NCBI GenBank assembly: GCA_964500415.1
Contig: CAZCOB010000007.1
Span: 10,934-74,933, forward strand
Direction of reading: 5' to 3'
Origin: an uncultured Dehalococcoidaceae bacterium
Lineage (GTDB): Bacteria; Chloroflexota; Dehalococcoidia; Dehalococcoidales; RBG-16-60-22
Length of the DNA: 64,000 nucleotides
The position numbers were made by a program, and so were the translations under genes. Below, piece after piece: positions 13,539 through 33,447 of this stretch; the first letter of the stretch is position 1, and each line of letters starts with the position of its first letter. Under the pieces are notes generated by a model. The model had not been told where the DNA came from, did no database searches, and was given only the letters and a program-made list of their open reading frames with translations.

Positions 13539-14054
13539 TCAGCTTACCGTCATATAGAACCTGGGTGAGGCGGCATCTTTATCGGCGCCGATGCTGTGGC
13601 AGTAAAAACAGCCTTTATCGACGGTTATTCTATAATTGGCGCACCCCGGCAGCTCGAAACTCACCTCACCGTTATGCAGAGTTACGTAGTTATCCCGCGG
13701 CGTTTCGCCTTCGTTTTGGATTACTTTCTCCCAGGTATCGACATCAGTCTGGACGTATACGCCTATGTTGAGAGTCATATAACGGTAATGATGGATAAGT
13801 TCATCGGTGTTGGTGATGTACAGGGTATAAAGCGTATCGGCATTACTCTGTGAAGAATCGATATAGAAGAGGTCGCCCGGTGTAATGCCGCCTATAGCAT
13901 TCCCATAAGCATTAATCCTGGGCGCTGCAGATGATTCGGCAGGCTCTATGTTCATGGGGGCGTTATTTGCCATGGCTCCGTCATAGGCGTAAGCCACCGG
14001 CCAGGGGGAGAGGAGTAAAGCCGCAATCAGGGGAAAAAGTAGTTTCCTTTTCAT
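13539..14054 (-). CDS. Secreted hypothetical protein (signal peptide)
   Basis: 171-aa ORF with an N-terminal signal-like sequence MKRKLLFPLIAALLLSPWPVAYA/YDG. No family recognised. Confidence 0.55.
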   Translation of the reverse strand: MKRKLLFPLIAALLLSPWPVAYAYDGAMANNAPMNIEPAESSAAPRINAYGNAIGGITPGDLFYIDSSQSNADTLYTLYITNTDELIHHYRYMTLNIGVYVQTDVDTWEKVIQNEGETPRDNYVTLHNGEVSFELPGCANYRITVDKGCFYCHSIGADKDAASPRFYMTVS

Positions 14055-14315: not shown

Positions 14316-14735
14316 TCAGCGTTTTCCGGTACGTGTATTGGAAAACGGGTCGAGCATTACGGTGGCATTCCGCTTCAGGGTCTCTTCTATCCGTGATTTT
14401 AATAAATCGACTCCAAAAGGCTCGGTTAGATAGCTATCGGAACCCAGGTTCAGGCCCCTGACCGTGTTGTCGCCGGTGCCCCAGGTACTGAGCATCACGA
14501 TGGGGACAAGCGTCCATTGGCGGAGTTGCAGGCATATGCCGATTCCATCCAGCGTGGGCATCATGATATCGAGAATGATTAATTCCGGGTCTTCGTTTTC
14601 GATTATATCCTCGAGGTGGATTCCGGTATGACGGGTGCTTATTATCTCATATCGACCGTCATTCAGTCCTTGCTGCAAAAAACTCACCAGTACCGGGTCG
14701 GTGCTGATAGTAAGAATTTTAGTTTTTGCCAGCAT
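14316..14735 (-). CDS. Single-domain response-regulator receiver (REC) protein with degenerate active-site residues
   Basis: 139-aa ORF. REC fold pattern ILTISTDP...LIILDIMMPTLDG...IVMLST...SYLTEPF. The phospho-Asp position is retained, but the acidic pair is S-T and the conserved Lys is E. Confidence 0.7.
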   Translation of the reverse strand: MLAKTKILTISTDPVLVSFLQQGLNDGRYEIISTRHTGIHLEDIIENEDPELIILDIMMPTLDGIGICLQLRQWTLVPIVMLSTWGTGDNTVRGLNLGSDSYLTEPFGVDLLKSRIEETLKRNATVMLDPFSNTRTGKR

Positions 14736-18433: not shown

Positions 18434-18465
18434 CAAATAATAAAAGGGAGCCGTTGCGGCTCCCT
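18434..18465 (-). terminator. Rho-independent terminator ending the two-component operon
   Basis: Perfect 10-bp stem AAGGGAGCCG (18443..18452) / CGGCTCCCTT (18456..18465) with a 3-nt loop. On the minus strand it is followed by ttttattatt. Confidence 0.8.
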
Positions 18466-18495
18466 TCGTTTCTGTCTAATTAAGATGCGAGGCTT

Positions 18496-19194
18496 CTATG
18501 GCACGTCGGTGGCTATGAAGTAGCCCACGCCGGGGATAGTCTGGATATACTTGGGGTTCTTGGGGTCGGGTTCCAGCTTCCGGCGTAGTCGGCCCACGAA
18601 CACGCGCAGGTACTCCTTCTCCGATGAGTATTCGCTGCCCCAGACGCTCTGTAAAAGCATACTGTGGGTGAGGACTTTATCCGAGTTCACCGCCAGGTGT
18701 TGCAGCAGCGAATACTCGGTGGGAGTAAGCGTTATCTCATTGCCGTTGACGGTGACGCGCCTCTTGGCAAAGTTAATCTCCAGTCCGTCGCAGGCGAAGC
18801 TTGACTGTGCCGGCGCTGCGGTGGGGTCGCCGCGGTGTCGGAAAGCCGTCTTGATTCTCGCCATAAGCTCGGCAATGCCGAAGGGCTTGGTCAGATAATC
18901 GTCGGCGCCCAGCTCCAGGCATTTAACCTTGTCGTTTTCATCGCCGCGTGCGCTGAGGATAATGATAGGTACGTTTGACCATTCCCGGATACGCCGTACC
19001 ACTTCCACGCCGTCCACTTTGGGCATCATAAGGTCGAGTATTATCAGGTCGACGAAATCTCTCTGCACCGCTTCCAGCGATTCCTCGCCGTTGGTAGCGG
19101 TAATTACTTCGTAGCCGCGTGCCTTGAGATTCGTACTGAGCAGTCTCAATATCGCCGGGTCATCATCTACGATGAGCAAGTTTTTCTTATCCAT
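18496..19194 (-). CDS. OmpR-family response regulator (REC + winged-helix DNA-binding domain)
   Basis: The start is reassigned to the ATG at 19194 (AAGGGGGA RBS), because the track start at 19311 overlaps the upstream kinase. Motifs MDKKNLLIVDDDP...LIILDLMMP...DDYLTKPF. C-terminus LTPTEYSLLQHL...YIQTIPGVGY. Confidence 0.9.
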   Translation of the reverse strand: MDKKNLLIVDDDPAILRLLSTNLKARGYEVITATNGEESLEAVQRDFVDLIILDLMMPKVDGVEVVRRIREWSNVPIIILSARGDENDKVKCLELGADDYLTKPFGIAELMARIKTAFRHRGDPTAAPAQSSFACDGLEINFAKRRVTVNGNEITLTPTEYSLLQHLAVNSDKVLTHSMLLQSVWGSEYSSEKEYLRVFVGRLRRKLEPDPKNPKYIQTIPGVGYFIATDVP

Positions 19195-19207
19195 AGTCGT
19201 TCCCCCT

Positions 19208-20827
19208 TTAGTCCACCGGCAGACTGAAGCTGAATCTGGTACCCTTAGCCGGTTCGCTTTCCACCCAGATTCTGCCGCCGTGTGCCTCGATAATACCCCG
19301 GCAAATGGCAAGCCCCAGCCCGGTCCCCTTTCTCCTTCCGGTTTTGCGCCCGTTTCCCTGGAAGAATCGTTCGAAAATTTTCAGTTGTTGTTCCGAAGGA
19401 ATGCCGACGCCTTCATCGGCCACGCTTAAAATAACTTCTTTTTTGCCGTTGGTATGCACTTCGATGGTAATGGTTGTATTATCTTCCGAAAACTTCACCG
19501 CGTTATCAACAAGATTGGTAAGGACCTCCCTGATGCGTCCGTCATCGATAGACACCGGCGGAAGCGAGTCGGGGATATCGATGCGCAGGTGGTGCCTGGC
19601 AGTAAGCTTATCCAGCCTGTCCTTTGTTGCGTAAATAACATCGGCGAGTTTATGAGGCTTCCTTTTTACCTCCAGAGCATTGGCTTCAAGACGCGACATC
19701 ATAAGCAGGTCGTCCACCAGGCGTGTCAGCGTGTCAGCGTCTTTGTCGATGGATACCAGGAAATCGCGCCGTGTCTGGTCGTCGAAAATAACATCGGATT
19801 GCAGGAGACTGTTAGCGCAACCCTTTATGACGGCCAGCGGTGTACGCAGTTCGTGGGAAACGTTGGCCAGGAACTCGGTACGCATGGAGTCCAGTTCCCG
19901 GAGAGCCTTGGCGCTGGAAGCATCTTCGTATAACTGTGCATTCCGCACGGCGATAGCTATCTCGCGGCCTATACCGGTAAGCAGCTCGACATTATTGGAA
20001 CTGAAATATCGCGCAAAACTGGTGGCTACACCCAGCACGCCGATACTTTCCCCCAGGATGGTCAGGGGGACGCCGGCGAATGAGTGGTAACCCCCGTTAA
20101 TAAGAAAATTGAGGTCGGTTTGTGTATCTCTAACTAACTCTTCGATTATTTCGGACCCGGCCTCCCCGAAGATACGACCGATAACACCGCTATTCTTGCT
20201 GATTTCTTTCGGCATGGACTGGACCAGCCTCTTGGATAAACCGTGGTGCCCCTTCAACCGCAGGTGGTCGTTTTCGCCTAGGTAGATAAAATTCGCCTCC
20301 AGGCCGGTAGACCGGGCTACTGTGTCCAGCGCCGAATCTATAATTTCCTGGAGGTCAAGCGACTGGGATACAGCTTGGGATACGTTAAGCAGGATATTGG
20401 TGATACGGTTATGCCGTTCCAGTTCTTCCACCAGCTGCCGGTTTTCCAGCACCAGACGCTGTTTCTCCAGGCCGCGGCTGATAACCGATAGCAGGTTATC
20501 CGGGTCGAGGGGTTTCTCCAGATAAGCGAAAGCGCCACGATTCAACGATTCCACGGCGTTCTGCACCGAAGAGTGGCCGGTCAGCATTATAGCGATGATT
20601 TCCGGGTGAATTTCGAGGATTCCGGAAAGCAGCTTGGTGCCATTAACGTCAGGCAGGCTGATATCCACAATAACGGCATTATAGAAAAGTTCTTTCAGGC
20701 GCAAAAAAGCGTCGCCGCCGGAAGGAGCGGTTTCTACCTCGTATCCCTTACCTTTGAGAATGCGGCTGATGATATTCAGGAAATCGAGGTCATCATCGAC
20801 TACCAGCACGCTTTCCTTAGCCTTCAT
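19208..20827 (-). CDS. Hybrid sensor kinase: REC - GAF - HisKA - HATPase_c
   Basis: 539 aa. N-terminal receiver (VLVVDDD...VIVDISLPDVNG...YLEKPL), a central GAF-like region, H-box SHELRTPLAVI, and ATPase motifs (DNAVKF, GTGLGLAI). The start overlaps the upstream gene by 11 nt. Confidence 0.85.
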   Translation of the reverse strand: MKAKESVLVVDDDLDFLNIISRILKGKGYEVETAPSGGDAFLRLKELFYNAVIVDISLPDVNGTKLLSGILEIHPEIIAIMLTGHSSVQNAVESLNRGAFAYLEKPLDPDNLLSVISRGLEKQRLVLENRQLVEELERHNRITNILLNVSQAVSQSLDLQEIIDSALDTVARSTGLEANFIYLGENDHLRLKGHHGLSKRLVQSMPKEISKNSGVIGRIFGEAGSEIIEELVRDTQTDLNFLINGGYHSFAGVPLTILGESIGVLGVATSFARYFSSNNVELLTGIGREIAIAVRNAQLYEDASSAKALRELDSMRTEFLANVSHELRTPLAVIKGCANSLLQSDVIFDDQTRRDFLVSIDKDADTLTRLVDDLLMMSRLEANALEVKRKPHKLADVIYATKDRLDKLTARHHLRIDIPDSLPPVSIDDGRIREVLTNLVDNAVKFSEDNTTITIEVHTNGKKEVILSVADEGVGIPSEQQLKIFERFFQGNGRKTGRRKGTGLGLAICRGIIEAHGGRIWVESEPAKGTRFSFSLPVD

Positions 20828-21575
20828 CTACTCTCCTGGAATGACGTTTCTTTTTTCTTATGTTGCTTACTATTTTGGCGGCTTCGGCAGGGTCGAACGG
20901 TTTGTAAAGGCAGGTAATCGCCGCAGCTTCCTGGGCCTTGTCCAGGGCGTCTTTGACTTCGTTACGGAATCCGGTCATCATTACTGTCAGGATGTCCGGG
21001 TTGATTTCCTTCAGGCGCAGCAGGGTTTCCAGACCGTCTATATTAGGCAGCTTTACATCTATAAAAGCCATCTGGAGCTCCTTTTCCTGAGCTATGGTAA
21101 CCGCCTCTTCGCCGCTACACGCCGTCAATACGTTGTATCCCTGCTGTTTCAGCACCTTGGTCAGGGTATCGCAGATATCGGCATCGTCATCAATGACGAG
21201 AATCGGCTGGTTGCCGGCTGCCGCTTCAATCATTTCTATCAATTTGTCTATTTTTATCGGTTTCTGGATGATTTTATGAGCACCCTCATCCCTGGCTATC
21301 TGAATCAGGCCCTCATCGGAATAGGCTGTCATCAGGATTATCGAGGCTTCGGGTTGCGCCTCCTTTATTTTCCGGAAAGCTTCCACGCCGTTCATCTCCG
21401 GCATAACGATATCCATTAGCGTGACGTCGAAATCATGTTCTTTAAACTTATCTACGGCGGATACCCCGTTACTCGCGGTTTCCACAGTAAAACCACGCCG
21501 TCTCAAAATCATCGCGAAGGTCTCCAGCAAATCCTCGTTATCGTCAACGACCAGAATCGTCGCTTCTTCGTTCAT
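20817..21575 (-). CDS. Tandem-receiver (REC-REC) response regulator without output domain
   Basis: 252 aa. REC1: ILVVDDNEDL...VTLMDIVMPEMNG...IIQKPI. REC2: ILVIDDDADI...MAFIDVKLPNIDG...CLYKPF. Both have canonical phospho-acceptor residues. Confidence 0.85.
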   Translation of the reverse strand: MNEEATILVVDDNEDLLETFAMILRRRGFTVETASNGVSAVDKFKEHDFDVTLMDIVMPEMNGVEAFRKIKEAQPEASIILMTAYSDEGLIQIARDEGAHKIIQKPIKIDKLIEMIEAAAGNQPILVIDDDADICDTLTKVLKQQGYNVLTACSGEEAVTIAQEKELQMAFIDVKLPNIDGLETLLRLKEINPDILTVMMTGFRNEVKDALDKAQEAAAITCLYKPFDPAEAAKIVSNIRKKKRHSRRVDEG

Positions 21576-21582
21576 TTCAGGT

Positions 21583-23085
21583 CTATCTCCTTTTCTCTAG
21601 CGGTAGCTTCACAATGAAGGTGGTGCCCTGGTCTACCTTACTGGTGATTTCAATTTTACCTCCGTTTTGCTCGACGAGCCTCTTGGTAATGGCCAGCCCC
21701 AGTCCGATGCCTTTAGGTTTGGTGGTGAAGAGAGGCTCGAATATCTTTTCGAAATTCCCTTCGGGGATGCCGCAGCCGTTGTCATGGAACTTTATCCAGA
21801 CGATGTCGCTCTCTTCGCCGGTATCGATGTCCAGTTTCCCAGCTTTCCCGTTCATGGCCTGTATGGCATTGGAAATGATATTGGTGAAGACACGGCTTAT
21901 CTGCTCGGCGTCGGTCCTGACCTTCGTGGGGTGACCGTTTAGATTGGCATTGACGGTGACGTGTTCCGGTACGGTTATCCATGACAGGCTTTCGGTGATG
22001 AGATTTTTAAGGTCGACCCTGTCCGGCGATGGAGGTGTGATGCGGGTGAAATCAAGCAGGTCGGTGACGATTTTATTAGCTATGTCAATCTGCTTGTCCA
22101 GGACTTTCAAGGTATTTACTGCCTCTTCGTCACCTTTATCCGTAAGGGCTATGTTCAGCAGGTAAGCGCAGTTCCTGATAACGTTGAGGGGATTGCGGAG
22201 TTCGTGACCGACGCCCGAGGCAAGCTCGCCTACGGCGGCCAGCCTTTCGGAGCGGATAAGTTTTTCCTGCACCTGTTCCAGGTCTTTCGTCCGGCTCTCG
22301 ACCTCGTCCTCCAGCTGTTCATAGTAACACTGGAGAGACTGCTCCAGCTCCATCTGGCGTATGGCACCGCCGATTCTCTCGACGAGTGTCTTGGTCAGGT
22401 GGCTCCTTTTCTTCAGGTAAGGATTATCACGGTATGAATATATCTCCACCAGACCCATCGTTTCGCCGCTGACGACTAGATTCTCGGATATTTTACTGGA
22501 AGATTTGTGGAAGTTGTTGCTCTTGAAGACACGGTCGTGAAAGGTGATTCTAACCTTGGTTTCTTCGGGATACTGCATCGCCTGAGGTACGATATTCACC
22601 ACCACCGACAGGAACTCGTCAACGGAGTCGCTTTCCTCCACCGCCTTACCGATATCATAGACGCATTTCATCTCCTTCATCCCCAGCCGGTGCTGCAGTT
22701 CGCTTCTCTGCAATAAGGCCACTGTGGAGCCGACGGCGCTGAGGATGATGAAAAAGGCTGTAGGTTTGAACAGTGCATTCGGGTAAGTATCGATAAGTAT
22801 GGCATGAGGCAGGAAAATTAGCATAGCGATAAGGCCGGACATTATCGCTGGTATTACCCCGAGAACATAAGCGGTGTAAACTACCGGTGCGAAGAATATC
22901 AGCCCCAGGAAGTCGATACCGTAAAAATTATGAAGGGTGTTGAGGGAGTTCTCCAGCGATGTCCAGCCGAAAAAGCCTCCGATAACGGGCAGATAGTAAA
23001 CAATGGAACAAAACACCGTGATGGCTATGATGTACCTCAGGTGTATGTTCGTCCACCATCTCTTCTTATTACGTCTGTGACTCAT
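21583..23085 (-). CDS. Membrane sensor histidine kinase (multi-pass N-terminus, HisKA + HATPase_c)
   Basis: 500 aa with a GGGAGG RBS. About 4-5 hydrophobic helices in the first ~125 aa. H-box GHELRNPLNVI. ATPase motifs NAIQAM and GIGLGLAI. Confidence 0.85.
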   Translation of the reverse strand: MSHRRNKKRWWTNIHLRYIIAITVFCSIVYYLPVIGGFFGWTSLENSLNTLHNFYGIDFLGLIFFAPVVYTAYVLGVIPAIMSGLIAMLIFLPHAILIDTYPNALFKPTAFFIILSAVGSTVALLQRSELQHRLGMKEMKCVYDIGKAVEESDSVDEFLSVVVNIVPQAMQYPEETKVRITFHDRVFKSNNFHKSSSKISENLVVSGETMGLVEIYSYRDNPYLKKRSHLTKTLVERIGGAIRQMELEQSLQCYYEQLEDEVESRTKDLEQVQEKLIRSERLAAVGELASGVGHELRNPLNVIRNCAYLLNIALTDKGDEEAVNTLKVLDKQIDIANKIVTDLLDFTRITPPSPDRVDLKNLITESLSWITVPEHVTVNANLNGHPTKVRTDAEQISRVFTNIISNAIQAMNGKAGKLDIDTGEESDIVWIKFHDNGCGIPEGNFEKIFEPLFTTKPKGIGLGLAITKRLVEQNGGKIEITSKVDQGTTFIVKLPLEKRR

Positions 23086-23298
23086 CTTCGGCCTCCCTAA
23101 TTATCCATAGGGTACGGTCGCTTTTCGCCATGGCTCCGTTAACTGCAACAGTTATCACAGCTAATTTTTCGCGCTTGCCCTGCAATTTCAGGCTACTACT
23201 GCGGCGCCATGGGAGGCAACCATGATAACCCCCTATTTTATCGGGGTATTCCCTCAGTCCCGTGAGCAGGAATCCCCAGACTGTACGGTATATATATT

Positions 23299-23847
23299 TT
23301 AGCTTTGTTGCCATTCCTTTATTATGCCCTTGATTTCGTTAAGGTCATCTATCAGTTCCTCGGATGTAACCTCCGGCAGCGCATTGATGAGGTTAGCCAG
23401 TGGATTTTCTTCCTCCTCATCGTCACTAAAAAGCGAATTGATGGAATCATCGCCGGTATCCTCTTCCACCTTTACTTCTTTCTCTCCTTCTGCCGGTGGA
23501 GTGCTTCCCAGCGCAAGCTCGACCACCTTGATATCCTCACCACCCTCTTCAAGGGGGGGTACATCTTCATCGATATCATCTATCTCGGTCAGTTTATCTT
23601 CCGGCTCGATAGTTAGCTCATCTATTGGCCCGTGAGGCCCTACCGGGGTAGCCTCGTCTTCAGTAGTGGTGGCGGTTTCTTTTGAGAGTTCCTGTAGTTC
23701 CTGTGTTGTTTCCTCGAGGTTCTTGGTTCTGCCGTTGATTTTTTCTTCCATCTCGGCAATTTGTTCGGCGGTATTATCTTCCGCTGTGCCGTTGTTTTTC
23801 CCCAGTTTTTCTTTTAATTTGCCTATGTTGAAACTTTTTATGCGCAT
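23299..23847 (-). CDS. Highly acidic hypothetical protein, last gene of the archaellum cluster
   Basis: 182 aa, D/E/T-rich. The C-terminal NPLANLINALPEVTSEELIDDLNEIKGIIKEW resembles the MLANLINWV... block of the ArlD/E-like protein. Lies 57 nt after arlI. Confidence 0.55.
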   Translation of the reverse strand: MRIKSFNIGKLKEKLGKNNGTAEDNTAEQIAEMEEKINGRTKNLEETTQELQELSKETATTTEDEATPVGPHGPIDELTIEPEDKLTEIDDIDEDVPPLEEGGEDIKVVELALGSTPPAEGEKEVKVEEDTGDDSINSLFSDDEEEENPLANLINALPEVTSEELIDDLNEIKGIIKEWQQS

Positions 23848-23904: not shown

Positions 23905-25710
23905 TTAACGGAAAAGACCGTCCCGGTATGCCTTGGATAATATCGCGTAAACATCGTAAAAATCGGTTTTACCCTGCTCGCTCATACGCCTCAGGACATC
24001 GGACCTTTGCTTCAGCAGCTTGTATATCTGCCTTCTCTTCTCTTCCGGGAGGCCGCGCCTGGGAGCTATTTTATTCTCCAGCAGGTATGAGTTCTGGAAA
24101 CCCCGGAACAGGAAAGAGTCGTCCAGCGGGTTCCAGTTGAAAGTCTCGATGAAAGAAAAAGAGTCGCCCACCGAATCGTAGCTGACGATTTCATTAACGC
24201 TGGTTATTTTCCGGGCAAGGCCGCCGTTGGCCAGCCGGACCTGCTGGCAGATAACGACGACGTTAAGGTTGTCCACGTATGTCTTGGGTACGCTGATGGG
24301 GACGCCGGTAACACGCTGGATGAGCTTGGATACAGAGGCGGCGTGGAAGGTGCTCATAGTTGCATGACCGGTTTGCATGGCCTGGAAGGCGATAGCGCCT
24401 TCGGCACCACGAATCTCACCGACAATGATAAGGTTGGGCCTCTGCCGCAGGGCAGCCTTGAGAAGGTCGAACATGGATACCTCGGAGGAGTCGCCCCCTT
24501 TATCGGAACCGCGGGTAACCCCGCGAATCCAGTTATGGTGCGGCACCTGGACTTCCGGGGTATCTTCGATGCTTACTATCTTGGCATCGGGGGGAATAAA
24601 GGTAGTGAGAGCGTTCAGCAGGGTAGTTTTACCGGAGGCCGTTTCCCCGGATACCCAGACATTCATACCTTCTTGGAGTATGATGGAGAGATAGGCGGCC
24701 ATATCGAAGCTCAGCATGCCGAACTGGATAAGCTCCAGTATGCTCAGCGGTGTGTCGCTGAACTTCCTGATGGTAAAATTGCTGCCCCGCTTGGAAACAT
24801 CGGTGCCGTAGACGATATTAATACGTGAGCCGTCGGGCAGAGTAGCATCGACAACCGGTTCGCGGAAGGTGACCGGGTGCTTGATGCCCTCGGCAAGCTC
24901 GATGACGAATTTATCCAGCGCCTCGTTGGTCTCGAATCCGATGCTTGCCCTGAGACCGCCGAAAATTTTATGCTCCACAAAGATATTACCGAGGCCGGAA
25001 CACGAAATATCTTCGATGTTGGGGTCAAGTATCATGGGGTCCAAGAGACCCATACCTTCCAGCTTACGCCGTAGCAGATACCGGAGGCTGTTGTACTGGA
25101 ACCTGGTTATCTGTATCTTTCCTTTGGAGCTACTTTTAGAATTAAAGAAAGGAATGTTTTTCCCTTTCTTATTTTGTTTATCATCTTTTTTATCACCTTC
25201 AGCGCTCTTGGTTTCATCAGGTTTCGGTGCTTTAGTTTTATAACCGCTAATAGAAACAACTCTATCGACGATTCCCATTATTATTTCAAGCCGTTTTCTG
25301 GAGTCGGCTACACCCTCAAGCTCTTCAACATAGTCGGCAAGGCGCAGTTCTATCTCGTCGAGTGTGCTGTCCTGGGCGTCGATGAGACTCGGTTCCACGG
25401 CGACATAGTAGTCCCTGACGTCCTCGGGGTTGGCCATGACATGAACGAATACCCCGCCGCCGACATCATAGATAAGGTTGGGGTTTTTAGTACCCTTGAG
25501 TGCCCGCGTTATTTTCTCATAGTACTGCGGGATTTCGAATTTATCCTCCGGAAGCATACGCAGGTACTGGAGGAGGTGCGGGTTATTTTTGCATACCTCC
25601 TGGAAATCAGGCGGGAGTTTCCCGAACATCGGGCACTTTTCCAGGGCGGCCCCGCATTCCTTCCCGCATTCCCCGGGGCACTGTTTTATTTCAAATGGCA
25701 GACGAAGCAT
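23905..25710 (-). CDS. arlI: Archaellum motor ATPase ArlI (FlaI), secretion-ATPase superfamily
   Basis: 601 aa. Walker A VSGETASGKTTLLNAL, followed by LIIVGEIRGAEG and the TGHATMSTFHA His-box region. Sits beside arlH and arlJ. Has an N-terminal CPGECGKECGAALEKC motif and a Lys-rich insert. Confidence 0.85.
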   Translation of the reverse strand: MLRLPFEIKQCPGECGKECGAALEKCPMFGKLPPDFQEVCKNNPHLLQYLRMLPEDKFEIPQYYEKITRALKGTKNPNLIYDVGGGVFVHVMANPEDVRDYYVAVEPSLIDAQDSTLDEIELRLADYVEELEGVADSRKRLEIIMGIVDRVVSISGYKTKAPKPDETKSAEGDKKDDKQNKKGKNIPFFNSKSSSKGKIQITRFQYNSLRYLLRRKLEGMGLLDPMILDPNIEDISCSGLGNIFVEHKIFGGLRASIGFETNEALDKFVIELAEGIKHPVTFREPVVDATLPDGSRINIVYGTDVSKRGSNFTIRKFSDTPLSILELIQFGMLSFDMAAYLSIILQEGMNVWVSGETASGKTTLLNALTTFIPPDAKIVSIEDTPEVQVPHHNWIRGVTRGSDKGGDSSEVSMFDLLKAALRQRPNLIIVGEIRGAEGAIAFQAMQTGHATMSTFHAASVSKLIQRVTGVPISVPKTYVDNLNVVVICQQVRLANGGLARKITSVNEIVSYDSVGDSFSFIETFNWNPLDDSFLFRGFQNSYLLENKIAPRRGLPEEKRRQIYKLLKQRSDVLRRMSEQGKTDFYDVYAILSKAYRDGLFR

Positions 25711-25718
25711 CTAATCTC

Positions 25719-26432
25719 CTAGACTCTAGCCTTGGCAAGCGGTATTATCCTCATGCCCATCTTGGGTTCTATATCGAAACTGACCACATCCCCGGTAGGG
25801 CGCTCGGCGCCGCGTACCTTGAGTACCTCCATAAGTTTAATCATGCTGTCGCCAACCTGCTCCAGGCGCAATCTAAAACGTGCATCGCATAACGAGCGGG
25901 TCCGGGCGAGCAAATCTTCTTCAAAAGCATATGAATGCGCTACCAGGATTATTGTTTTACCTTCGTCACATAAGCCTTTACATCTGGAAAAGAAATCGAT
26001 AATGGCCACCGGATTGCTATGCGCCACGAGCAGGGTGATAGAGTCCACTATTATCAGTTTAAATTCCTGCGGCTGTTGTGAAAAATGGTGAGTCAGCACG
26101 TAAAACGGTTTCTGCCCGCCCTGCATACTACTGTGAAAGGTCAGCGGGTAGACGCGCAGGTGGTCCGCCAGGAAATGGTCAAGTACGCTCATTGCCAGCG
26201 ATTCCATCTGGCTTATCAGGCTTCTAACGCTGTTTTCCGTAGTATAGTAAGCTACCGAGATTTCGCCGGTAACCAGGGTGCCGTTGGTCAGATGCTGGCA
26301 CAGGACGCTTTTACCGGCATCGGAGTGGCCTTCGATGAGGCACAGAGAACCGAGCGGAATACCGCCGCCCAGCTTCTCATCAACCTCCGGTACTCCGGTA
26401 ATTATAAACTCCTTTTTCTTCTGTGTCGCCAT
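25719..26432 (-). CDS. arlH: ArlH (FlaH), KaiC/RecA-like ATP-binding archaellum protein
   Basis: 237 aa. Motifs GGGIPLGSLCLIEGHSDAGKSVL (Walker A) and LIIVDSIT (Walker B-like). Size and position next to arlI match ArlH. Confidence 0.8.
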   Translation of the reverse strand: MATQKKKEFIITGVPEVDEKLGGGIPLGSLCLIEGHSDAGKSVLCQHLTNGTLVTGEISVAYYTTENSVRSLISQMESLAMSVLDHFLADHLRVYPLTFHSSMQGGQKPFYVLTHHFSQQPQEFKLIIVDSITLLVAHSNPVAIIDFFSRCKGLCDEGKTIILVAHSYAFEEDLLARTRSLCDARFRLRLEQVGDSMIKLMEVLKVRGAERPTGDVVSFDIEPKMGMRIIPLAKARV

Positions 26433-26463
26433 TATCAGTCACCTCTCTCTTGTGCGGGGATTT

Positions 26464-27513
26464 TCATTTTTTACGCTTTTTAGGAGGGTCATCTTTGCTC
26501 TCCTCGGGATTGAGGTCAATGCAAAACTCCTTGCTCTTGCCGTCACCATTCGGGAAGACGAGTTTCAGTTTTACCGGGGACTCTTTATTCTTGTCTACCT
26601 CTATTATCTCTTCTTCCTCGGTCAGTTCCGCCTCGCTGCTGGACTCGCTCCAGGAAGGGCTTACCGGATGGAGCGGCGCATCGCCACCCGTCAGGATTCC
26701 GTGCAGTAAAAGCATAGTCTGGCTCCAGACCTCGGCGTTATTGGCGACTTCCGGATGCTCTGCTGATATTTCTGAAAGGTGTATAATGAGTTCCTTCAAT
26801 TCGGGAGTCAGGTGCCCGCTGATACCATAGACCTCGAGGAAGGTAGTCAACTGTTCCTGGCCTATTTCTTTCTTGGCTCTGGCAACCCAGTTAATTAAAT
26901 TGGCCAGCATGTTAACCTTCGGTATTGCTGATTCTGCTTCAACAGCAGTAATTTTTTCATAGTCCACAGGTTGTTCCTCCTCTGCGGGTATCTCTGATTG
27001 AGGTGAGGTGATTTCACCTTGTTCATCAAGCTCATCGGATTCACCGATTTCGTCAGGTTCGCTGAATTCTTCGCCTTCAAAAGCATCTTCCGGAACAAGT
27101 TGCGAATCATCGGAAGGAAGGTCTTCTTCCTGACCGATTGAGTCATCTTCTGAGAGCATTTCGGTTTCTTCCCTGAGCGGTTTTTCCATGTCGAGCAGGT
27201 CTTCATCTTCGGGGGGTGTTTCCAAATCATCTTCGACTTGCTCCTCGGTGGTTTCCTTCGTAGTTTCCACCTCTTCCGCTCCCTGGGCAGCGGCTTCGGC
27301 AGCTTTATTACCCAGGGCATTAGCGATGCTGCCGTCGATGGTTACTTTCTGGTTGCCGTCACTACCGAGAGCCGCCAGAATAGTGGAAAATTCCGATGAA
27401 GGCAATTCCATGTTAAGCAGGTAGTCCCGGACGCTGGCCAGTGACTGCTTTATTTCCCCCTTCAACAGCTTAATATCATCTTGGAGAGTTTCAACTTTTT
27501 TTTCTTCTGCCAT
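26464..27513 (-). CDS. Acidic protein with ArlD/ArlE-like C-terminal block (candidate archaellum switch/cytoplasmic ring component)
   Basis: 349 aa with an N-terminal coiled coil and a long D/E-rich linker. The block NLINWVARAKKEIGQEQLTTFLEVYGISGHLTPELKELI resembles, from memory, the W..fL....G.....L.yY..iGWIs..v signature of archaeal FlaD/E. Confidence 0.5.
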   Translation of the reverse strand: MAEEKKVETLQDDIKLLKGEIKQSLASVRDYLLNMELPSSEFSTILAALGSDGNQKVTIDGSIANALGNKAAEAAAQGAEEVETTKETTEEQVEDDLETPPEDEDLLDMEKPLREETEMLSEDDSIGQEEDLPSDDSQLVPEDAFEGEEFSEPDEIGESDELDEQGEITSPQSEIPAEEEQPVDYEKITAVEAESAIPKVNMLANLINWVARAKKEIGQEQLTTFLEVYGISGHLTPELKELIIHLSEISAEHPEVANNAEVWSQTMLLLHGILTGGDAPLHPVSPSWSESSSEAELTEEEEIIEVDKNKESPVKLKLVFPNGDGKSKEFCIDLNPEESKDDPPKKRKK

Positions 27514-27519
27514 GATGTT

Positions 27520-27711
27520 TTATCCCCTTTCCGCTTCAAGTTCTTCACGGAGCCTTTCCCTGGCCAGGTCGTTAGGGATGGGTGTCTGAGCTTCCATGAT
27601 GTAAGTACGGATATCAAGCAATATCTCTTTCAATTCGTCGCTTATTTCCTGTAATTCAGCCTCGACTGTTTTAGCTTCATTTTCTTTCTCTGTATTGGTC
27701 TTTGTCTCCAT
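27520..27711 (-). CDS. Small acidic coiled-coil protein (possible ArlC-like)
   Basis: 63 aa, tightly packed between arlJ (10-nt gap) and the ArlD/E-like gene (6-nt gap). LKEILLDIRTYIMEAQTP parallels IKQSLASVRDYLLNMELP at the N-terminus of the next protein. Confidence 0.45.
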   Translation of the reverse strand: METKTNTEKENEAKTVEAELQEISDELKEILLDIRTYIMEAQTPIPNDLARERLREELEAERG

Positions 27712-27721
27712 ATTAACCTCC

Positions 27722-29230
27722 TTATATTTGGGAAACAGATGTAAATAAAGAATTGGCTAAAGCCGGCAGGATGACCAGGGCCAGGCCGGAAATAGTTGCG
27801 GTAATTGCAAAATTACTTAATACTTTATATTTGCTGCCACCGTCCGCCAGAGTGGGCACGATAGCATTGGCTACCGTAAATATAAGGACCAGCGGCAATA
27901 CCATCTGGTGCATCAGCTCAAGCCCGGAGAGATTGAAGCTGCTAAGAGAGCTGAAGGAAGGTGCTCCAGACGTCGTGGGCATCGTCTCCTGGGCTTTGCT
28001 TACCATGCCGCCAAAAGACGTGATAACCTCCGTAATGAATACCAGTATAATAACGACGCAAGTGTGCATGGTGACGCAGAGCCAGCGGAATGGACCGGTT
28101 ATCGTCCTTCGCTTTGCCCTGAGCAATGCAATCCTGTTGGCGAAGGAAGCGGCATGCTGGCCGGCCTGGCCTGCCGAGCCGCCCACTTCAATGGCATCGT
28201 AGAACATGCTTACGCTGCGGTGAGTCAGTTCGCTTCCAGTCTCGTCGATGAATACCTTCCAGGATAGCTTAGGCTTGATACCGGCGGTGAGTCTCGTGTG
28301 CAGATTTTTTACCGAGCTCCTCAGCACGTTGATGGCATCAAGGTCGAGCCGGCTCAGTGCGGCATTCACCGTCGTACCCAGGGCGGTACAGACACCGCCC
28401 AGTGAACGCAGGAAAGTCCCTACTTCATCATCCCTCTTGGTTACTTTATGGTCGTCGCGCATCATGATAAAGCCTATGGGAAAGACCAGCCCCGCGACTA
28501 CTAAAAGCGCTAAACCCAGGTTCTGCCCGGTTAATAAAAAGAGGGCGCCGATGCCGACGGCAATCGGCAGAAAGAATTTTACAAGCTTGCTGGCCAGCTT
28601 TTGTTCCTTGGAACCTGACCAGCGCAAGACCATCTTCTCTTTGGGCGAGATCAGCCAGATAAGCCAGACACCGACGGTGGTAGTACCAATAGCGATGAAT
28701 GCCATAGCTATAATCAGCGAAGTTTCGATTTTCCATATCATGGTGGATACTATCCCGATGACTATTACCAGTACCGCCGAAAGGATGAGGGAGATATAGG
28801 CATCTGTCCACATTTTCAGGCCTTCCAGGCTTCTCGTATATTCGTTTTCGTAATCCTCGGCGCGGGCATGGGCTTCTCTCATAAGAAAATCGGCCTCGGG
28901 TTCGCCGGAGATGAGCGAACTGGAGAAGCGGAGAAGTAGACCTTTCACGTCCTCTTCTTTAAGTGGTTCTCCTACCGCACGGCAGGCCCGGGCATAATCG
29001 TATTTCAAACGTTTGCGGGCTAACTCGACTCTTTTAAAATATTCCGCAGAGGAACACTGAAGCTCGGCGGAGCGTTCGAAAATCTGGTCGCGCGGCACGC
29101 CGGCGGCGGCGATGGCGGACATGTATGATAGCTGGTAAAACATGTCAAAACTCATCAGGCGGTTGGTCTTGTTCTTGCTCTTACCCTTTTCGCCTTTTCT
29201 AAATATCAGTTGTTTTAACTTTTCCAGCAT
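27722..29230 (-). CDS. arlJ: ArlJ (FlaJ), polytopic membrane platform protein (T2SS-F-like)
   Basis: 502 aa. A soluble N-terminal region is followed by at least 7 hydrophobic helices (e.g. YISLILSAVLVIVIGIVSTMIW, LALLVVAGLVFPIGFIMM, FAITATISGLALVILPALA). Located within the archaellum cluster. Confidence 0.8.
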   Translation of the reverse strand: MLEKLKQLIFRKGEKGKSKNKTNRLMSFDMFYQLSYMSAIAAAGVPRDQIFERSAELQCSSAEYFKRVELARKRLKYDYARACRAVGEPLKEEDVKGLLLRFSSSLISGEPEADFLMREAHARAEDYENEYTRSLEGLKMWTDAYISLILSAVLVIVIGIVSTMIWKIETSLIIAMAFIAIGTTTVGVWLIWLISPKEKMVLRWSGSKEQKLASKLVKFFLPIAVGIGALFLLTGQNLGLALLVVAGLVFPIGFIMMRDDHKVTKRDDEVGTFLRSLGGVCTALGTTVNAALSRLDLDAINVLRSSVKNLHTRLTAGIKPKLSWKVFIDETGSELTHRSVSMFYDAIEVGGSAGQAGQHAASFANRIALLRAKRRTITGPFRWLCVTMHTCVVIILVFITEVITSFGGMVSKAQETMPTTSGAPSFSSLSSFNLSGLELMHQMVLPLVLIFTVANAIVPTLADGGSKYKVLSNFAITATISGLALVILPALANSLFTSVSQI

Positions 29231-29269
29231 TCTGGTTGTGTTTCCCTTCCTTTACTCATTATGGTCGAT

Positions 29270-30355
29270 TTAAGACCACTCGATTCCCTGTATTCTGGTC
29301 TGGCTGGTCTCTGGCAGGGAACCATCGTCCACTCTAAGCCTGATATAGCTGCTTCCACTCGGCCCGGGAAAGTCGGAGACGCCGTAATAAGCAATCTCCA
29401 GATAGTCGGTATTATCAACCACGGTATATCCCGGGAAACTGTAACTTGCCGAAATGTTTATCCAGAAATTGCGGGTATAAAAGCTAGCCGCAGCGACTTC
29501 GGTGTCGATGACCTCGCGGATAGTCCCGTCGGCTCTCCTGATAATAACGTCGATATTAAGCGAGGCATTCCACCAGGTTCCTGACACCCAGCCGTAAGCC
29601 CGGCCGCGATAGCGCACCGTCCAGGTGGATGCCGAAATTTCATTGACATTGGATAGGGGGAATAAGTGCCTGGCATACCTGGAATCATCATTGTCATCAT
29701 GGAGAAGCCATCGGCCTGTTACCCTGTTGCCGATACGGTCGGTTGTTTCCGTTACCGCAGAGCCGTCAGCCGGAGTCCATCCCTTGAGCATGAAGTAATC
29801 GATTCCAACAAGAGTGACAGTTTCCGTATGAGCCGTGAGTGTGGGCGGACCGCAGACGAGGGTAGGGGCGATACCGTTGGGAGTAACAATAGTCATTTTA
29901 ATCGCCCGGTAGCCGGCTATCGGTTCCAGAATTGCCCCCAAATCCAGTTGTTCTTCCGGGTTAAGTATATCCGGCTCGAAGGCTTCCGGTCCTCCGTTGA
30001 GAGAGATGCCCGTCTTGTACCACTGGTTTTCGGCCGGCGAGCCTTCCACGTAGGGCAGCCAGTTCACGTTGAAACTGTCGCTATCATCGTAGTACTCCAC
30101 GATGAAGTCCCATCTATCGAAACTCGCCAGTTTAACCTGACCGTTATTCTCAAATGTTGCCAGTAGCGTATCGTACGAAGGCAGGCTGGCATCGACCCCG
30201 ACCAAATCGGTTCTCATTATCTCTCCCTCTCTCAAGGCAATCCCCTCGACGCTGAGGGCGGTAGAGTCCGCCGAGGTGAGAATCCCCTGGGACAATGACA
30301 TGCCTCCTACTACTATCATCGCTATACAAATAATCGAGACGACGGCAGTCGCCAT
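29270..30355 (-). CDS. ArlF/ArlG-family protein with ~190-aa extra C-terminal domain
   Basis: 361 aa. aa 1-~170 are paralogous to the 174-aa neighbour (MATAVVSIICIAMIVVGGMSLSQG, RTDLVGVDASL, FDRWDFIVEYYD, VNWLPY, FEPDILNPEEQ). The remainder is a W/Y/T-rich, beta-looking domain with no recognisable match. Confidence 0.65.
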   Translation of the reverse strand: MATAVVSIICIAMIVVGGMSLSQGILTSADSTALSVEGIALREGEIMRTDLVGVDASLPSYDTLLATFENNGQVKLASFDRWDFIVEYYDDSDSFNVNWLPYVEGSPAENQWYKTGISLNGGPEAFEPDILNPEEQLDLGAILEPIAGYRAIKMTIVTPNGIAPTLVCGPPTLTAHTETVTLVGIDYFMLKGWTPADGSAVTETTDRIGNRVTGRWLLHDDNDDSRYARHLFPLSNVNEISASTWTVRYRGRAYGWVSGTWWNASLNIDVIIRRADGTIREVIDTEVAAASFYTRNFWINISASYSFPGYTVVDNTDYLEIAYYGVSDFPGPSGSSYIRLRVDDGSLPETSQTRIQGIEWS

Positions 30356-30416
30356 ATCATTCGCTCCTTAATAACTCTGGCGTTAGTATTAATTTATTCC
30401 TCCTGTTATCAAATCA

Positions 30417-30941
30417 TCAGGGCGAGAAATAGGTCGAAGCGGTAACCCCGCTGGGCGTAGAGATAATCACCATATTGGTGGTGCCGTATCCTACCGACGG
30501 ATAAAGCCAGGTTCTTATCATCATCTGCTCACCGGGATTTAATACGTTCGGTTCAAATATCTCTGGCTCTCCGTCCACCTGTATCCAGACCACTTCCCAC
30601 TCGTATGTCCCCGCTGTATCTTCATTGTAGGGTAGCCAGACTACATGATATTCGCTGCCCGTATCGTAATACTGGACGATGACATCCCATTTATCGAAAT
30701 CAGCCAGCTTAGTCTGGCCGGTGTTTTCCAGTACTATCTCCAGGGGGTCGGGGCCGGATGGAGTCGAAAGGCTGGTACTGATGGGCGTCAGTTCCGTCCT
30801 CATTATCGTTTCATCTCTCTGGCCTACCTCTTCGAGTCCCACCGTGCTGGCGTCAACCGACGTCATGAATCCCTGGGACATTGTCATACCGCCAAACACT
30901 ATCAAGGCTATACATATTATTGAGACAATAGCCGTCTCCAT
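30417..30941 (-). CDS. ArlF/ArlG-family archaellum stator-like protein
   Basis: 174 aa. N-terminal TM METAIVSIICIALIVFGGMTMSQG followed by a beta-rich domain (FDKWDVIVQYYD, VVWLPY, FEPNVLNPGEQ). Position after the archaellins matches arlF/arlG. Confidence 0.7.
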   Translation of the reverse strand: METAIVSIICIALIVFGGMTMSQGFMTSVDASTVGLEEVGQRDETIMRTELTPISTSLSTPSGPDPLEIVLENTGQTKLADFDKWDVIVQYYDTGSEYHVVWLPYNEDTAGTYEWEVVWIQVDGEPEIFEPNVLNPGEQMMIRTWLYPSVGYGTTNMVIISTPSGVTASTYFSP

Positions 30942-30953
30942 AATTTTTCTCCG

Positions 30954-31430
30954 TTACATACTGAAGTAAAATTCATCAGATATACCGTTAGGAATAATGA
31001 ACTTAGAATAATAAGTCCCCGTGCCGGGGTCACTGGTATAACTTATGGTAATTTTTAAAGTGGCACTGGTCTGCCACTCGCTATCATTCTCTATATCAAA
31101 ATCCCATTGTGGATAAGCCCCCTCGGCATCCTCGTAGTAGGGGACATGGGTAAAGTTGTCCGATTGCCCGAAGAACAGGTCGCTCTCTTCAACGCTGACG
31201 ATGCGCTGGGTGCCCACGTTTTTTACCCAGAGGTAAACGTACAGGCGGTCGACGGAATTTGCCGCATGAACAATATTTATCCGACTCTTCATCCGTTCGT
31301 CAACCTGTTCGGCCATGCTGACCATGGCTTGGCTGGAACGGTTTATCATCGGATAAACACTATTAAAGACAAATATCATACACACAACTCCCGCTATTAT
31401 AAGTAGAGCTGTAGTAATGGCCTTGTCCAC
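30954..31430 (-). CDS. ArlF/ArlG-family archaellum stator-like protein
   Basis: 158 aa. GTG start with a GGAGG RBS 7 nt upstream. N-terminal TM AITTALLIIAGVVCMIFVF followed by LYVYLWVKNVGTQRI..., typical of FlaG/FlaF-type proteins. Confidence 0.65.
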   Translation of the reverse strand: MDKAITTALLIIAGVVCMIFVFNSVYPMINRSSQAMVSMAEQVDERMKSRINIVHAANSVDRLYVYLWVKNVGTQRIVSVEESDLFFGQSDNFTHVPYYEDAEGAYPQWDFDIENDSEWQTSATLKITISYTSDPGTGTYYSKFIIPNGISDEFYFSM

Positions 31431-31529
31431 AAAAGACCTCCATTTTTTCTTCGGAGCGGGTGTTTGCGACCGTCCACATCTCCCACAGCTTTCAGAAGCG
31501 GGTGGCGCCTACTCAACATCACAGGTTTG

Positions 31530-31560
31530 GGGTGGGGGTCCGGCCGGAGAACCCCCACCC
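31530..31560 (-). promoter_or_regulatory. GC-rich stem-loop between archaellin and accessory genes (attenuator / mRNA-stability element candidate)
   Basis: Perfect 10-bp stem GGGTGGGGGT (31530..31539) / ACCCCCACCC (31551..31560), 29 nt after the arlB stop in a 158-nt gap. No U-tract follows it. Confidence 0.45.
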
Positions 31561-31588
31561 GATTTAAGGCTTTAACTAACTGAATCGG

Positions 31589-32218: not shown

Positions 32219-32253
32219 TTTTCCTCCTTTTAGCTTGTCTGGTAAGTATCACT

Positions 32254-32907: not shown

Positions 32908-33105
32908 TTTTCCTCCTTAGTTGATGGGATTCTTCGAGTAAAGTATTTTGTTCCGTTGATTTTCCTGAGCACCTATGCTTCTTTGAACATCACCCCCTTC
33001 CATTTAATTACTTTTTTTATCCTCAGTTGTTACACCTTATTTTCACATTCTTTTCACACTCCTTTACGCTGATTAACCGGCTCATCATGAAGGCTTGTTC
33101 CGGTG

Positions 33106-33444
33106 TTAACCGGGTAACACCGCCTTCTCAAGATTGGAGTAAACCAGTTCGTAAATATTATGGTCAGGCGGGCGGATGCTATCGGAGGTGCCGCCTGGCT
33201 TTGAAAATTCTGCTGCATCTGGCAGTAGCGGTACTTCAAGATCGTATTTTTCCGGCTGGCTGGAGAATATATCGTTAACAGCGGGAATCTGCGACAGGAC
33301 TACCACCAATACCGTACCTGCTATAAAGGCACAAGCCATCCTCAAGCGGGTGGTAATATCTTTACTCTCTTTTACCCATTTGGTTATATTTCTAATAACT
33401 TCCCGCATCTTTATATATCTGCTGACGTATAATTCTGATTCCAT
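33106..33444 (-). CDS. Hypothetical single-pass membrane protein inserted between archaellin genes
   Basis: 112 aa. The start lies 3 nt after the upstream archaellin stop, suggesting translational coupling. One TM helix, ACAFIAGTVLVVVLSQIPAV. No family recognised. Confidence 0.45.
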   Translation of the reverse strand: MESELYVSRYIKMREVIRNITKWVKESKDITTRLRMACAFIAGTVLVVVLSQIPAVNDIFSSQPEKYDLEVPLLPDAAEFSKPGGTSDSIRPPDHNIYELVYSNLEKAVLPG

Positions 33445-33447
33445 TGA

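Follow-up and report, generated by a model that had tools for sequence, protein, structure and literature searches.

How does a bacterium control an archaellum that was imported from archaea? Functional archaella in bacteria were shown only in 2025, in Chloroflexota that acquired them horizontally from Euryarchaeota (Sivabalasarma et al., PMC12488501), and their control by the bacterium is explicitly an open question, because these bacteria lack the archaeal adaptor CheF and no chemosensory system could be detected in the model strain. Here we describe a 64,000-nucleotide stretch of contig CAZCOB010000007.1 (positions 10,934 to 74,933; hereafter the window), in which a four-gene operon of two-component signalling proteins lies directly downstream of an archaellum cluster. 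We lean towards the reading that this operon is a two-component module that was kept attached to the imported archaellum and that governs the timing of archaellum synthesis and perhaps also the running of the motor. This claim is based on conserved linkage, purifying selection and analogy.

The minus strand carries every gene between 13.5 kb and 34 kb of the window. The original prediction placed four co-oriented genes at 18496-23085, encoding a membrane HisKA kinase, a REC-REC protein, a hybrid kinase and an OmpR-type regulator, and Pfam confirmed this content (lengths in amino acids, aa):

21583..23085, minus strand: HK500, membrane sensor histidine kinase, 500 aa (Pfam HisKA and HATPase_c)
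20817..21575, minus strand: REC-REC, 252 aa, two Response_reg domains and no output domain (Pfam)
19208..20827, minus strand: hybHK, hybrid kinase, 539 aa, Response_reg, GAF, HisKA and HATPase_c (Pfam)
18496..19194, minus strand: OmpR/PhoB-family response regulator, 232 aa, Response_reg and Trans_reg_C (Pfam)
18443..18467, minus strand: intrinsic terminator at the operon end, 11-bp stem with 7 G-C pairs and a 3-nt loop

The expected spacings, two gaps of 7 and 13 nt and an overlap of 11 nt, match the sequence exactly. By direct reading, 7 nt separate HK500 from REC-REC, the start of hybHK overlaps the end of REC-REC by 11 nt, and the ATG of the OmpR-type gene lies 13 nt past the hybHK stop codon. 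The list of open reading frames (ORFs) gives the latter gene as 18496-19311(-); its true start is the ATG at 19194, which is preceded by the Shine-Dalgarno (SD) sequence AGGGGGA. The kinase and regulator genes are thus adjacent and translationally coupled within the operon. The strong terminator that was predicted to close the operon is present (18467-18443, minus strand), and the tail after its stem is T-rich (TTTTATTATTT, likewise listed as TTTTATTATTTGT).

HK500 begins with four to five hydrophobic transmembrane helices joined by very short outside loops (hydropathy), followed at residues ~135-245 by a cytoplasmic alpha/beta domain that is GAF/PAS-like in the AlphaFold2 model (pLDDT 85-91). 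Its kinase core is AtoS/ZraS-like: the best NCBIfam matches are AtoS and ZraS, below cut-off, and the top Foldseek match of the model is the cytoplasmic domain of ZraS (9jfj). LvrB structures are also among the Foldseek matches, which reflects the shared kinase core only. For the N-terminal sensor, Pfam at E-values up to 10 returned only an insignificant DUF4118 match, and Foldseek with the whole model returned kinase cores and no sensor family. The hybrid kinase has the domain order REC (residues 7-116), GAF (157-294), HisKA (315-382) and HATPase_c (428-538) according to Pfam; NCBIfam shows its kinase core to be PnpS/PhoR/WalK-like and its N-terminal receiver NtrC/NtrX/ZraR-like. Both kinases have HisKA and HATPase_c domains, their H-boxes read GHELRNPL and SHELRTPL, and H294 is invariant across 28 homologues. 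The first receiver of REC-REC (REC1) is nearest to AtoC/NtrC-type receivers and next to haloarchaeal CheY (NCBIfam CheY_Halo, 79.6 bits against a cut-off of 200). The OmpR-type regulator matches Pfam Response_reg with 117.6 bits and Trans_reg_C with 87.5 bits, and aligns over its full length with the NCBIfam families RpaB, MtrA, PhoB, KdpE and OmpR, all below the equivalog cut-offs. REC1, REC2 and the receivers of hybHK and the OmpR-type regulator are all canonical, with the acidic pocket, phospho-Asp, Thr/Ser and Lys. For REC-REC this agrees with what had been predicted: both receivers retain the acidic pair, phospho-Asp, Thr and Lys, and these DD/D/T/K sites are invariant in 19 orthologues. 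The operon therefore has both marks of a two-component system, a HisKA kinase core with its H-box His and canonical receivers.

The original prediction further called the operon a phosphorelay, and this label was not borne out. Pfam found no Hpt domain in the four operon proteins or in the other scanned ORFs of the window; the same search readily found Hpt in CheA of related loci. Moreover, the hybHK receiver is N-terminal (residues 7-116) and not C-terminal to the catalytic domain, as it is in phosphorelay hybrids. Since the four proteins contain no HPt domain, they do not form a classical His-Asp-His-Asp phosphorelay. From its domains, the operon looks like two neighbouring kinase-regulator pairs between which a Rec-controlled kinase forms the bridge. 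LvrB of Leptospira (PMC13269768) and CheS3 of Rhodospirillum centenum (PMC3868531) likewise have an N-terminal receiver before the DHp and catalytic domains, and there an upstream kinase phosphorylates the receiver and thereby switches the downstream kinase, giving a two-tier His-Asp/His-Asp cascade without HPt. HybHK differs from them by a GAF domain between receiver and DHp, the presumed upstream kinase is a membrane-bound AtoS/ZraS-like one, and the presumed downstream partner is an OmpR-type regulator instead of an anti-sigma factor (LvrB) or CheY3 (CheS3). The second pair is comparable to PhoR/PhoB, WalK/WalR and EnvZ/OmpR in that the hybHK core and the OmpR-type regulator match over full domains and are encoded by translationally coupled genes. 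However, the scores stay below the equivalog cut-offs, so that neither protein is a named orthologue, and hybHK is a soluble kinase under the control of a receiver and a GAF domain.

Is the position of this operon next to the archaellum more than a coincidence? Two features stand upstream of HK500:

23905..34047, minus strand: archaellum cluster, arl2-like (Pfam Arch_flagellin, FlaF_Ig-like, T2SSF, KaiC ATPase, T2SSE)
23299..23847, minus strand: unk182, acidic protein directly after arlI, last archaellum-cluster gene in the clade

An ArlI scan with one genome per species gave 80 loci (locus labels below begin with L or P). In the ArlI tree the window and 19 loci form a monophyletic clade of 20 sequences that share the order arlJ-X-arlH-arlI. 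All 16 species-level clade loci with enough downstream DNA (L002, L003, L005-L015, L017, L018 and L019) encode HK500, REC-REC and hybHK, hereafter the trio, directly after arlI-unk182, and the OmpR-type gene follows wherever the contig reaches (L018 ends inside the hybrid kinase). Compared with the window proteins, the kinase is 55-86% identical in these loci, REC-REC 46-87%, the hybrid kinase 54-82% and the OmpR-type regulator 70-92%; ArlI identity in the clade loci is 61-89%. With dN/dS values of 0.04-0.16, similar to arlI, and dS mostly above 1 (saturated), all four genes are under purifying selection. Three loci were considered as counter-examples and dismissed, since their DNA stops before the expected trio position: L004 ends right after arlI, and L016 and L024 end inside a chemotaxis (che) cluster.

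The reverse test gave the same picture. All five contigs that were found through kinase homologues (P0125, P0134, L082, L084, L085) carry arlI upstream. A metagenome scan anchored on REC-REC gave five orthologous loci; upstream DNA was available for two of them and contains arlH and arlI in both cases, so that arlI is present on 7/7 kinase- or REC-REC-anchored contigs. Most of what the REC-REC scan returned consisted of unrelated receivers, tandem or single, at 24-40% identity, and no arl genes lie beside the tandem-receiver proteins that are at most 36% identical. The adjacency thus held up in relatives: within the clade there was no locus without the operon and no operon without the locus, and neither an orthologous trio without an archaellum nor a clade archaellum without the trio was seen among the sampled contigs. 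Because the arrangement recurs in 16 other species-level genomes under purifying selection, the linkage goes well beyond chance adjacency.

The original prediction implied that a bacterial relay had been recruited in an archaeal setting. The evidence reverses this. The closest ArlI loci (61-89% identity) all belong to metagenome-assembled genomes (MAGs) named Dehalococcoidales, Dehalococcoidaceae or Chloroflexi, while archaeal (Methanosarcinales) loci appear only at 46-54% ArlI identity. The named HK500 homologues are from Dehalococcoidales or Chloroflexota as well, and the non-motility flanking genes are common to these MAGs. Judged by these relatives and by the published transfer from Euryarchaeota, the host is a Chloroflexota (Dehalococcoidales-like) bacterium with signalling genes of its own and an archaellum that came in from outside. 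The trio is missing from all archaeal loci that were retrieved and therefore is a bacterial addition.

Within the cluster the gene order is arlB1, a 112-aa ORF, arlB2, arlB3, arlG, arlF, a 361-aa ORF (unk361) and arlJ, followed by a small ORF, a 349-aa acidic ORF (unk349), arlH and arlI; it is identical in L002-L019. The locus thus unites arlB, arlG-arlF in GF order, arlH, arlI and arlJ, as expected of the arl2 type, and an arlG-arlF order with a variable arlHIJ order was noted before in Chloroflexota clusters (PMC12488501). Homologues of unk182 follow arlI in every clade lineage, including the che-bearing ones. The protein has a conserved C-terminal motif (LFS..EEE.PL..LI.SLPDVS..EL) and no Pfam or NCBIfam family. 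The arlJ-unk349 gap contains an uncalled ORF of 63 codons with a good Shine-Dalgarno sequence (27520-27711, minus strand), and a called gene for 58-62 aa occupies its position in L082, L083 and L084. The ORF probably encodes a small coiled-coil protein that belongs to the archaellum cluster.

Which part of the operon is tied to the archaellum becomes clear from the chemotaxis genes. The window had been described as free of che and MCP genes, and Pfam, tblastn and a receiver scan all agree. Pfam on the remaining large ORFs found only metabolic enzymes and no che or MCP gene, tblastn with CheA, CheW, CheC, CheD, CheR and MCP of related loci gave only cross-matches to the receiver and ATPase domains of the operon, and the scan of all window ORFs of at least 70 aa found only the operon receivers and one stand-alone receiver at 14316-14735. 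This receiver and a neighbouring gene lie downstream of the operon:

14316..14735, minus strand: REC139, stand-alone degenerate receiver (Pfam Response_reg), 3.8 kb from the OmpR-type gene
13539..14054, minus strand: p171, secreted-looking protein of 171 aa with an N-terminal signal-like sequence

An F1-type chemosensory set is thus absent from the window, whereas it is present after arlI in L016, L024, L038, P0125, P0134 and L085. In L016, L024 and L038 a cluster of MCP, CheW, CheA, CheC, CheD, CheY, CheB and CheR genes follows arlI-unk182; in L038 it is followed by an HD-GYP-like gene, a 212-aa ORF and an HK500 orthologue (50% identity), where the DNA ends. P0125, P0134 and L085 have arlI, an unk182-like gene, the che cluster (CheA-CheC-CheD-CheY-CheB-CheR), an HD-GYP-like gene, an ORF of ~190-220 aa with a FliM-type N-terminus, and then the kinase, REC-REC and REC-GAF-kinase genes, without OmpR. 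In L082 only a CheR remnant and an MCP gene lie between arlI and the trio, and an OmpR-type gene is lacking as well.

The OmpR-type regulator, REC139 and p171 are confined to the che-less subclade. The OmpR-type regulator is therefore an add-on and not the conserved output; the kinase/REC-REC/hybrid-kinase trio is the conserved core, and OmpR, REC139 and p171 look like later additions. The che cluster was either lost from an ancestral arl-che-trio arrangement or inserted, and the trio stayed with the archaellum either way. Orthologues of REC139 at 48-82% identity are found downstream of OmpR in L003, L008-L010, L012, L013, L015, L017 and L019, and p171 orthologues beside REC139 in L003, L012, L013, L015, L017 and L084. 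L084 is window-like, with OmpR, a 122-aa single receiver in the REC139 position and a p171 homologue. In REC139 the conserved Lys is replaced by Glu and the pocket has a single acidic residue; p171 gave no family match. Both genes directly follow OmpR in some relatives, and 0-5 variable genes lie between in others.

In the window, this variable insert between OmpR and REC139 consists of small paralogous proteins, an AadA-like nucleotidyltransferase and a SnoaL-like protein, and the copy number differs among relatives. The paralogues (14985-16824, minus strand) resemble each other at the N-terminus (M.E.KYGKYI...) and show an HxH..E pattern like that of cupins:

16399-16824, 15904-16377, 14985-15422 and the C-terminal half of 15440-16195, minus strand: small paralogues, no Pfam match

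The sister lineages suggest another explanation, namely that the trio is an accessory branch of a chemosensory system whose receivers are phosphorylated by CheA, and that in the window it is fed by an unlinked CheA or is a remnant that was rewired to HK500. It would explain why the trio directly follows che genes in P0125, P0134 and L085, why a CheR remnant precedes it in L082, and why L038 shows the same set up to the HK500 orthologue. No DNA-binding regulator follows the trio in the P0125, P0134, L085 and L082 contigs, and there is a precedent in R. centenum, where CheA3 phosphorylates the Rec-controlled kinase CheS3 (PMC3868531). Nevertheless, the window and 16 related loci have no nearby che genes, yet the catalytic and phospho-site residues are invariant and dN/dS is low, so that the module is not a decaying remnant. 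Moreover, every lineage has HK500 as a membrane kinase dedicated to the trio. This explanation agrees with the sister lineages but not with the che-less ones, in which the whole module has been maintained, and overall we consider it quite improbable.

Two further genes of the che-bearing Dehalococcoidia loci deserve mention. The first encodes a protein of 160-216 aa that starts with (V/L)LSQ(A/S)(D/E)(I/V)DA(L/M). A low-complexity linker and a coiled coil come next, and at the C-terminus there is a CxxC...CxxC zinc ribbon whose last residues are W.GW(W/F)P. The protein is absent from the window and belongs to no Pfam or NCBIfam family:

LSQ-type zinc-ribbon protein: L038 19518-20156; L082 9412-9975; L083 7095-7658; L080 18263-18802; L036 7207-7689

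Its gene stands directly upstream of the HK500 orthologue in L038, L082 and P0125/P0134/L085. The N-terminus is of the FliM/FliY kind, whose 'EIDALL' peptide binds CheY-P (PMC9126983), which makes the protein a candidate for a CheY-to-archaellum adaptor that replaces CheF in Chloroflexota. The paper that reports the absence of CheF there also suggests that signalling may have come to be connected with the motor by another, newly evolved component (PMC12488501). The second gene, between cheR and the zinc-ribbon gene (L038 18398-19480; also in P0125, P0134 and L085), encodes an HD-GYP-type protein of 360 aa (Pfam HD_5) and hints at a cyclic-di-GMP input to the motility supercluster.

How might the operon itself be expressed? 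It was predicted that the gap upstream of HK500 could hold a separate promoter, and a conserved non-coding block bears this out:

23086..23298, minus strand: unk182-HK500 gap, 213 nt, with the conserved non-coding block and the SD sequence AGGGAGG downstream of it
23190..23231, minus strand: RNA hairpin in the operon leader, GGGUUAUCAUGGUUG...GUAGUAGCCU, 15 pairs, G-U-rich (RNAalifold)

The block, GGGACTG.GGGAATACCCCGATAAAATAG at ~23234-23261, is conserved in 14 species despite saturated synonymous divergence. It is unique in the window and lies 148-163 nt upstream of the HK500 start in 12 loci. In the hairpin 92% of cells are paired, compared with 29-58% after sliding of the 3' partner, compensatory changes are seen in three apical pairs, and the covariation score was reached by 1 of 500 shuffles; Rfam had no match for the gap RNA, even at E-values up to 1. 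Given these two elements, the gap probably contains an internal promoter/operator and a structured leader, so that the operon would have its own transcription start. The hairpin encloses the ATG of an 11-codon mini-ORF whose sequence is not conserved. There is no terminator-like site between arlI and HK500, and read-through from arlI may occur as well. In the basal loci L018 and L019 the gap is only 14-29 nt, and throughout the basal and che-bearing lineages the kinase gene starts 14-33 nt past the preceding gene, a spacing that suggests co-transcription with the motility genes in those lineages. A shared sigma-28-like promoter was considered and rejected. The conserved CCCCGATAA in the gap resembles a sigma-28 -10 element and was dismissed as a signal of a shared regulon: upstream of arlB1, the window and L009 alone have CCCGATA, the two positions do not align, and the alignment of the arlB1 upstream regions shows no conservation of it.

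The region upstream of arlB1 contains three features that bear on transcription of the archaellins:

34447..35178, plus strand: NarL/VraR-family regulator, divergent from arlB1 (Pfam GerE; full-length NCBIfam/PDB matches MadR/NarL/VraR)
34292..34329, minus strand: four direct repeats CAT(T/A)A in exact 11-bp phase, between the NarL-type gene and arlB1
34275..34284, minus strand: perfect palindrome GCCAATTGGC, just downstream of the repeat array, in the long conserved arlB1 leader

The repeat array is the only such site in the window, where 0.07 would be expected by chance at one mismatch or less. Among 83 scanned loci it was found only in this same intergenic region, namely in L002, L003, L004, L009, L011, L012 and L015. 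In L038, the sole OmpR-less locus with DNA upstream of arlB1, the array is degenerate but recognisable. The palindrome is conserved as GCCA(A/T)(A/T)TGGC in 9 of 12 aligned loci. Repeats in direct orientation with a spacing of 10-11 bp are consistent with a winged-helix regulator, a palindrome with a NarL-type dimer. The array is thus a candidate binding array for the OmpR-type regulator, and GCCAATTGGC a candidate site for a NarL-type dimer. The NarL-type gene occupies the same position in 12 related loci, with 58-86% identity. In its receiver a Ser replaces the phospho-accepting Asp (the VraR Asp aligns to 'LILSVKK'); it is therefore atypical and probably independent of phosphorylation. It is also a candidate rival regulator of arlB.

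Domain content, conserved linkage, purifying selection and the conserved leader element are observed; in the scheme that can now be proposed for the operon, every phosphotransfer step and both outputs are inferred. HK500 would sense a membrane or cytoplasmic cue, which is probable given its almost complete lack of external loops and its confidently modelled alpha/beta domain. It would then phosphorylate the NtrC-type receivers next door, namely those of REC-REC and the N-terminal receiver of hybHK. Phosphorylation of the latter would switch the hybrid kinase, as in LvrB or CheS3, with the GAF domain adding a second input, and the hybrid kinase with its PhoR/WalK-like core would phosphorylate the OmpR-type regulator. 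This regulator would act on transcription, with the four CAT(T/A)A repeats before arlB1 as its best candidate target. As REC-REC has no output domain, it would act by contact with the motor or accessory acidic proteins, or as a phosphate sink. Such two-path wiring is suggested by gene adjacency, translational coupling and family-level affinities, which pair the AtoS/ZraS-like kinase with AtoC/NtrC-like receivers and the PhoR/WalK-like kinase with the RpaB/PhoB-like regulator.

Alternatively, REC-REC could be the main output, acting on ArlH/ArlI or on the acidic ArlCDE-like/unk182 proteins as a CheF-independent switch or brake, with the OmpR-type regulator being secondary. In the che-bearing lineages REC-REC is the sole terminal regulator encoded with the trio, both its receivers are strictly canonical, and the second-best family match of REC1 is archaeal CheY, even though its CheY_Halo score is far below the family cut-off. 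Receiver-ArlH fusions in 11 other Chloroflexota loci hint at contact between receivers and ArlH, but the receivers in these fusions are closer to the OmpR type than to REC1 or REC2. Furthermore, output-less receivers are often phosphate sinks or connectors. The dual-receiver protein FrzZ of Myxococcus xanthus, the output of a motility-reversal pathway, the Frz chemosensory system (PMC3441718), is a precedent: like REC-REC it has two receivers and no output domain and is encoded with a motility control system. FrzZ acts by protein contact, is phosphorylated by the CheA-type FrzE and controls gliding/pilus polarity (PMC3441718). In contrast, REC-REC adjoins a HisKA membrane kinase and the apparatus is an archaellum; the window has no CheA, while in sister lineages REC-REC orthologues directly follow a che cluster with CheA. 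Overall, a dominant role of REC-REC seems unlikely.

The original prediction had offered REC-REC as a CheY-like effector, but as a plain CheY substitute it does not hold, since in sister lineages the trio coexists with a full che cluster including CheY. In Euryarchaeota a phosphorylated receiver encoded near the archaellum cluster is the motor input through CheY-CheF-ArlCDE (PMC9126983), and REC-REC is comparable by position. In contrast to that system, the window has no CheF, CheA, CheW or MCP, and REC-REC is a tandem receiver below the CheY cut-off that lies outside any chemosensory cluster in the window. In a broader version of the idea, Chloroflexota would steer the imported motor without CheF through bacterial receivers connected directly to it, and the trio would be the interface in this clade: phosphorylated REC-REC would bind ArlH/ArlI or unk349/unk182 to start, stop or reverse the motor, and through the OmpR branch the same signal would also reach the transcription of the archaellins. 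This version is speculative and we give it little credence. Its receiver-to-motor wiring would have parallels in the REC-ArlH fusions of Anaerolineae-type loci and in the FliM-like LSQxDVDAL zinc-ribbon adaptor, which is found together with CheY in the che-bearing sister lineages.

Other receiver devices are found often in Chloroflexota archaellum loci outside the clade, which are without this operon. An N-terminal receiver on ArlH is present in 11 of 77 ArlH ORFs, in Anaerolineae-type loci:

REC-ArlH fusions: L045 8891-9988; L054, L057, L058, L061, L065, L066, L069, L071, L072 and L077

In L045, ArlH consists of Response_reg (17-130) and KaiC ATPase (144-360) according to Pfam; the receiver has kept the phospho-Asp and Lys and has Ala for Thr. 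This suggests direct phospho-control of the motor through ArlH in the fusion loci. In L020 (13747-21526), right after arlJ, there are a kinase, a REC-REC protein 30% identical to that of the window, two multi-receiver hybrid kinases and another receiver protein. In SAR202-type loci, arlJ is followed by a receiver protein of ~221 aa (L021, L022, L025, L026, L029 and L030, at ~13.2-13.9 kb or equivalent).

For our reading of the operon as a module that controls the archaellum, several observations have to be weighed on the opposite side. The functional case is guilt by association, and family-level matching of kinases and receivers is weak evidence of specificity. The gap motif is shared with no arl promoter region, and as the operon has its own upstream block, one regulon with arlB cannot be demonstrated. 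The repeat array lies ~118 nt from the start of the NarL-type gene and could equally serve that gene or bind its protein. Che-less status was judged on single contigs. Finally, some flanks (ADH372, c15 and SnoaL231) are syntenic among closer relatives too.

Several of these points would be expected if the operon were simply a neighbour by descent, an ordinary environmental two-component system with targets elsewhere (REC139/p171 or unlinked genes) in a region that rearranges little. Its own conserved upstream block and leader hairpin in a 213-nt gap agree with this, and the joint appearance of OmpR, REC139 and p171 suggests a self-contained unit. However, the linkage persists between lineages at 50-60% ArlI identity, where dS is saturated, and it has outlasted both the gain or loss of an 8-kb che cluster and a change of the outer flanks, which vary among relatives beyond the arl-operon block. 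In addition, arlI accompanies every kinase- or REC-REC-anchored contig, and in basal members the kinase gene is only 14-33 nt past a motility gene. The persistence of the linkage through che gain or loss and changing flanks weakens this explanation, and we regard it as unlikely.

With respect to earlier work, the cluster resembles the described Chloroflexota archaellum clusters (PMC12488501; Mahanta et al. 2026 preprint 10.64898/2026.05.11.724246) in its arl2 type, arlG before arlF, variable arlHIJ, Dehalococcoidia host and lack of CheF. The preprint surveys chemosensory systems in Chloroflexota archaellum genomes. These two papers report one receiver of 129 aa within the L. aerophila cluster and describe how F1/ACF chemosensory systems are distributed, but they do not describe the kinase/REC-REC/hybrid-kinase trio found here. 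Their main texts never mention a histidine kinase or a two-component operon beside the cluster, nor do the two papers mention the REC-ArlH fusion, and a full-text literature search found no account of a two-component operon next to a bacterial archaellum.

We therefore propose the four-gene operon as a leading candidate for bacterial control of the borrowed archaeal motor, a dedicated module that would have a transcriptional branch (OmpR) and a protein-level branch (REC-REC). The locus supplies concrete candidates: a trio that remained attached through deep divergence and loss of che genes, and an OmpR-type regulator with a plausible operator before the first archaellin gene. If true, this would be a clear case of a host regulatory network grafted onto a machine that was transferred between domains of life, and its purified proteins and defined DNA sites would be starting points for work on organisms that are not yet culturable.

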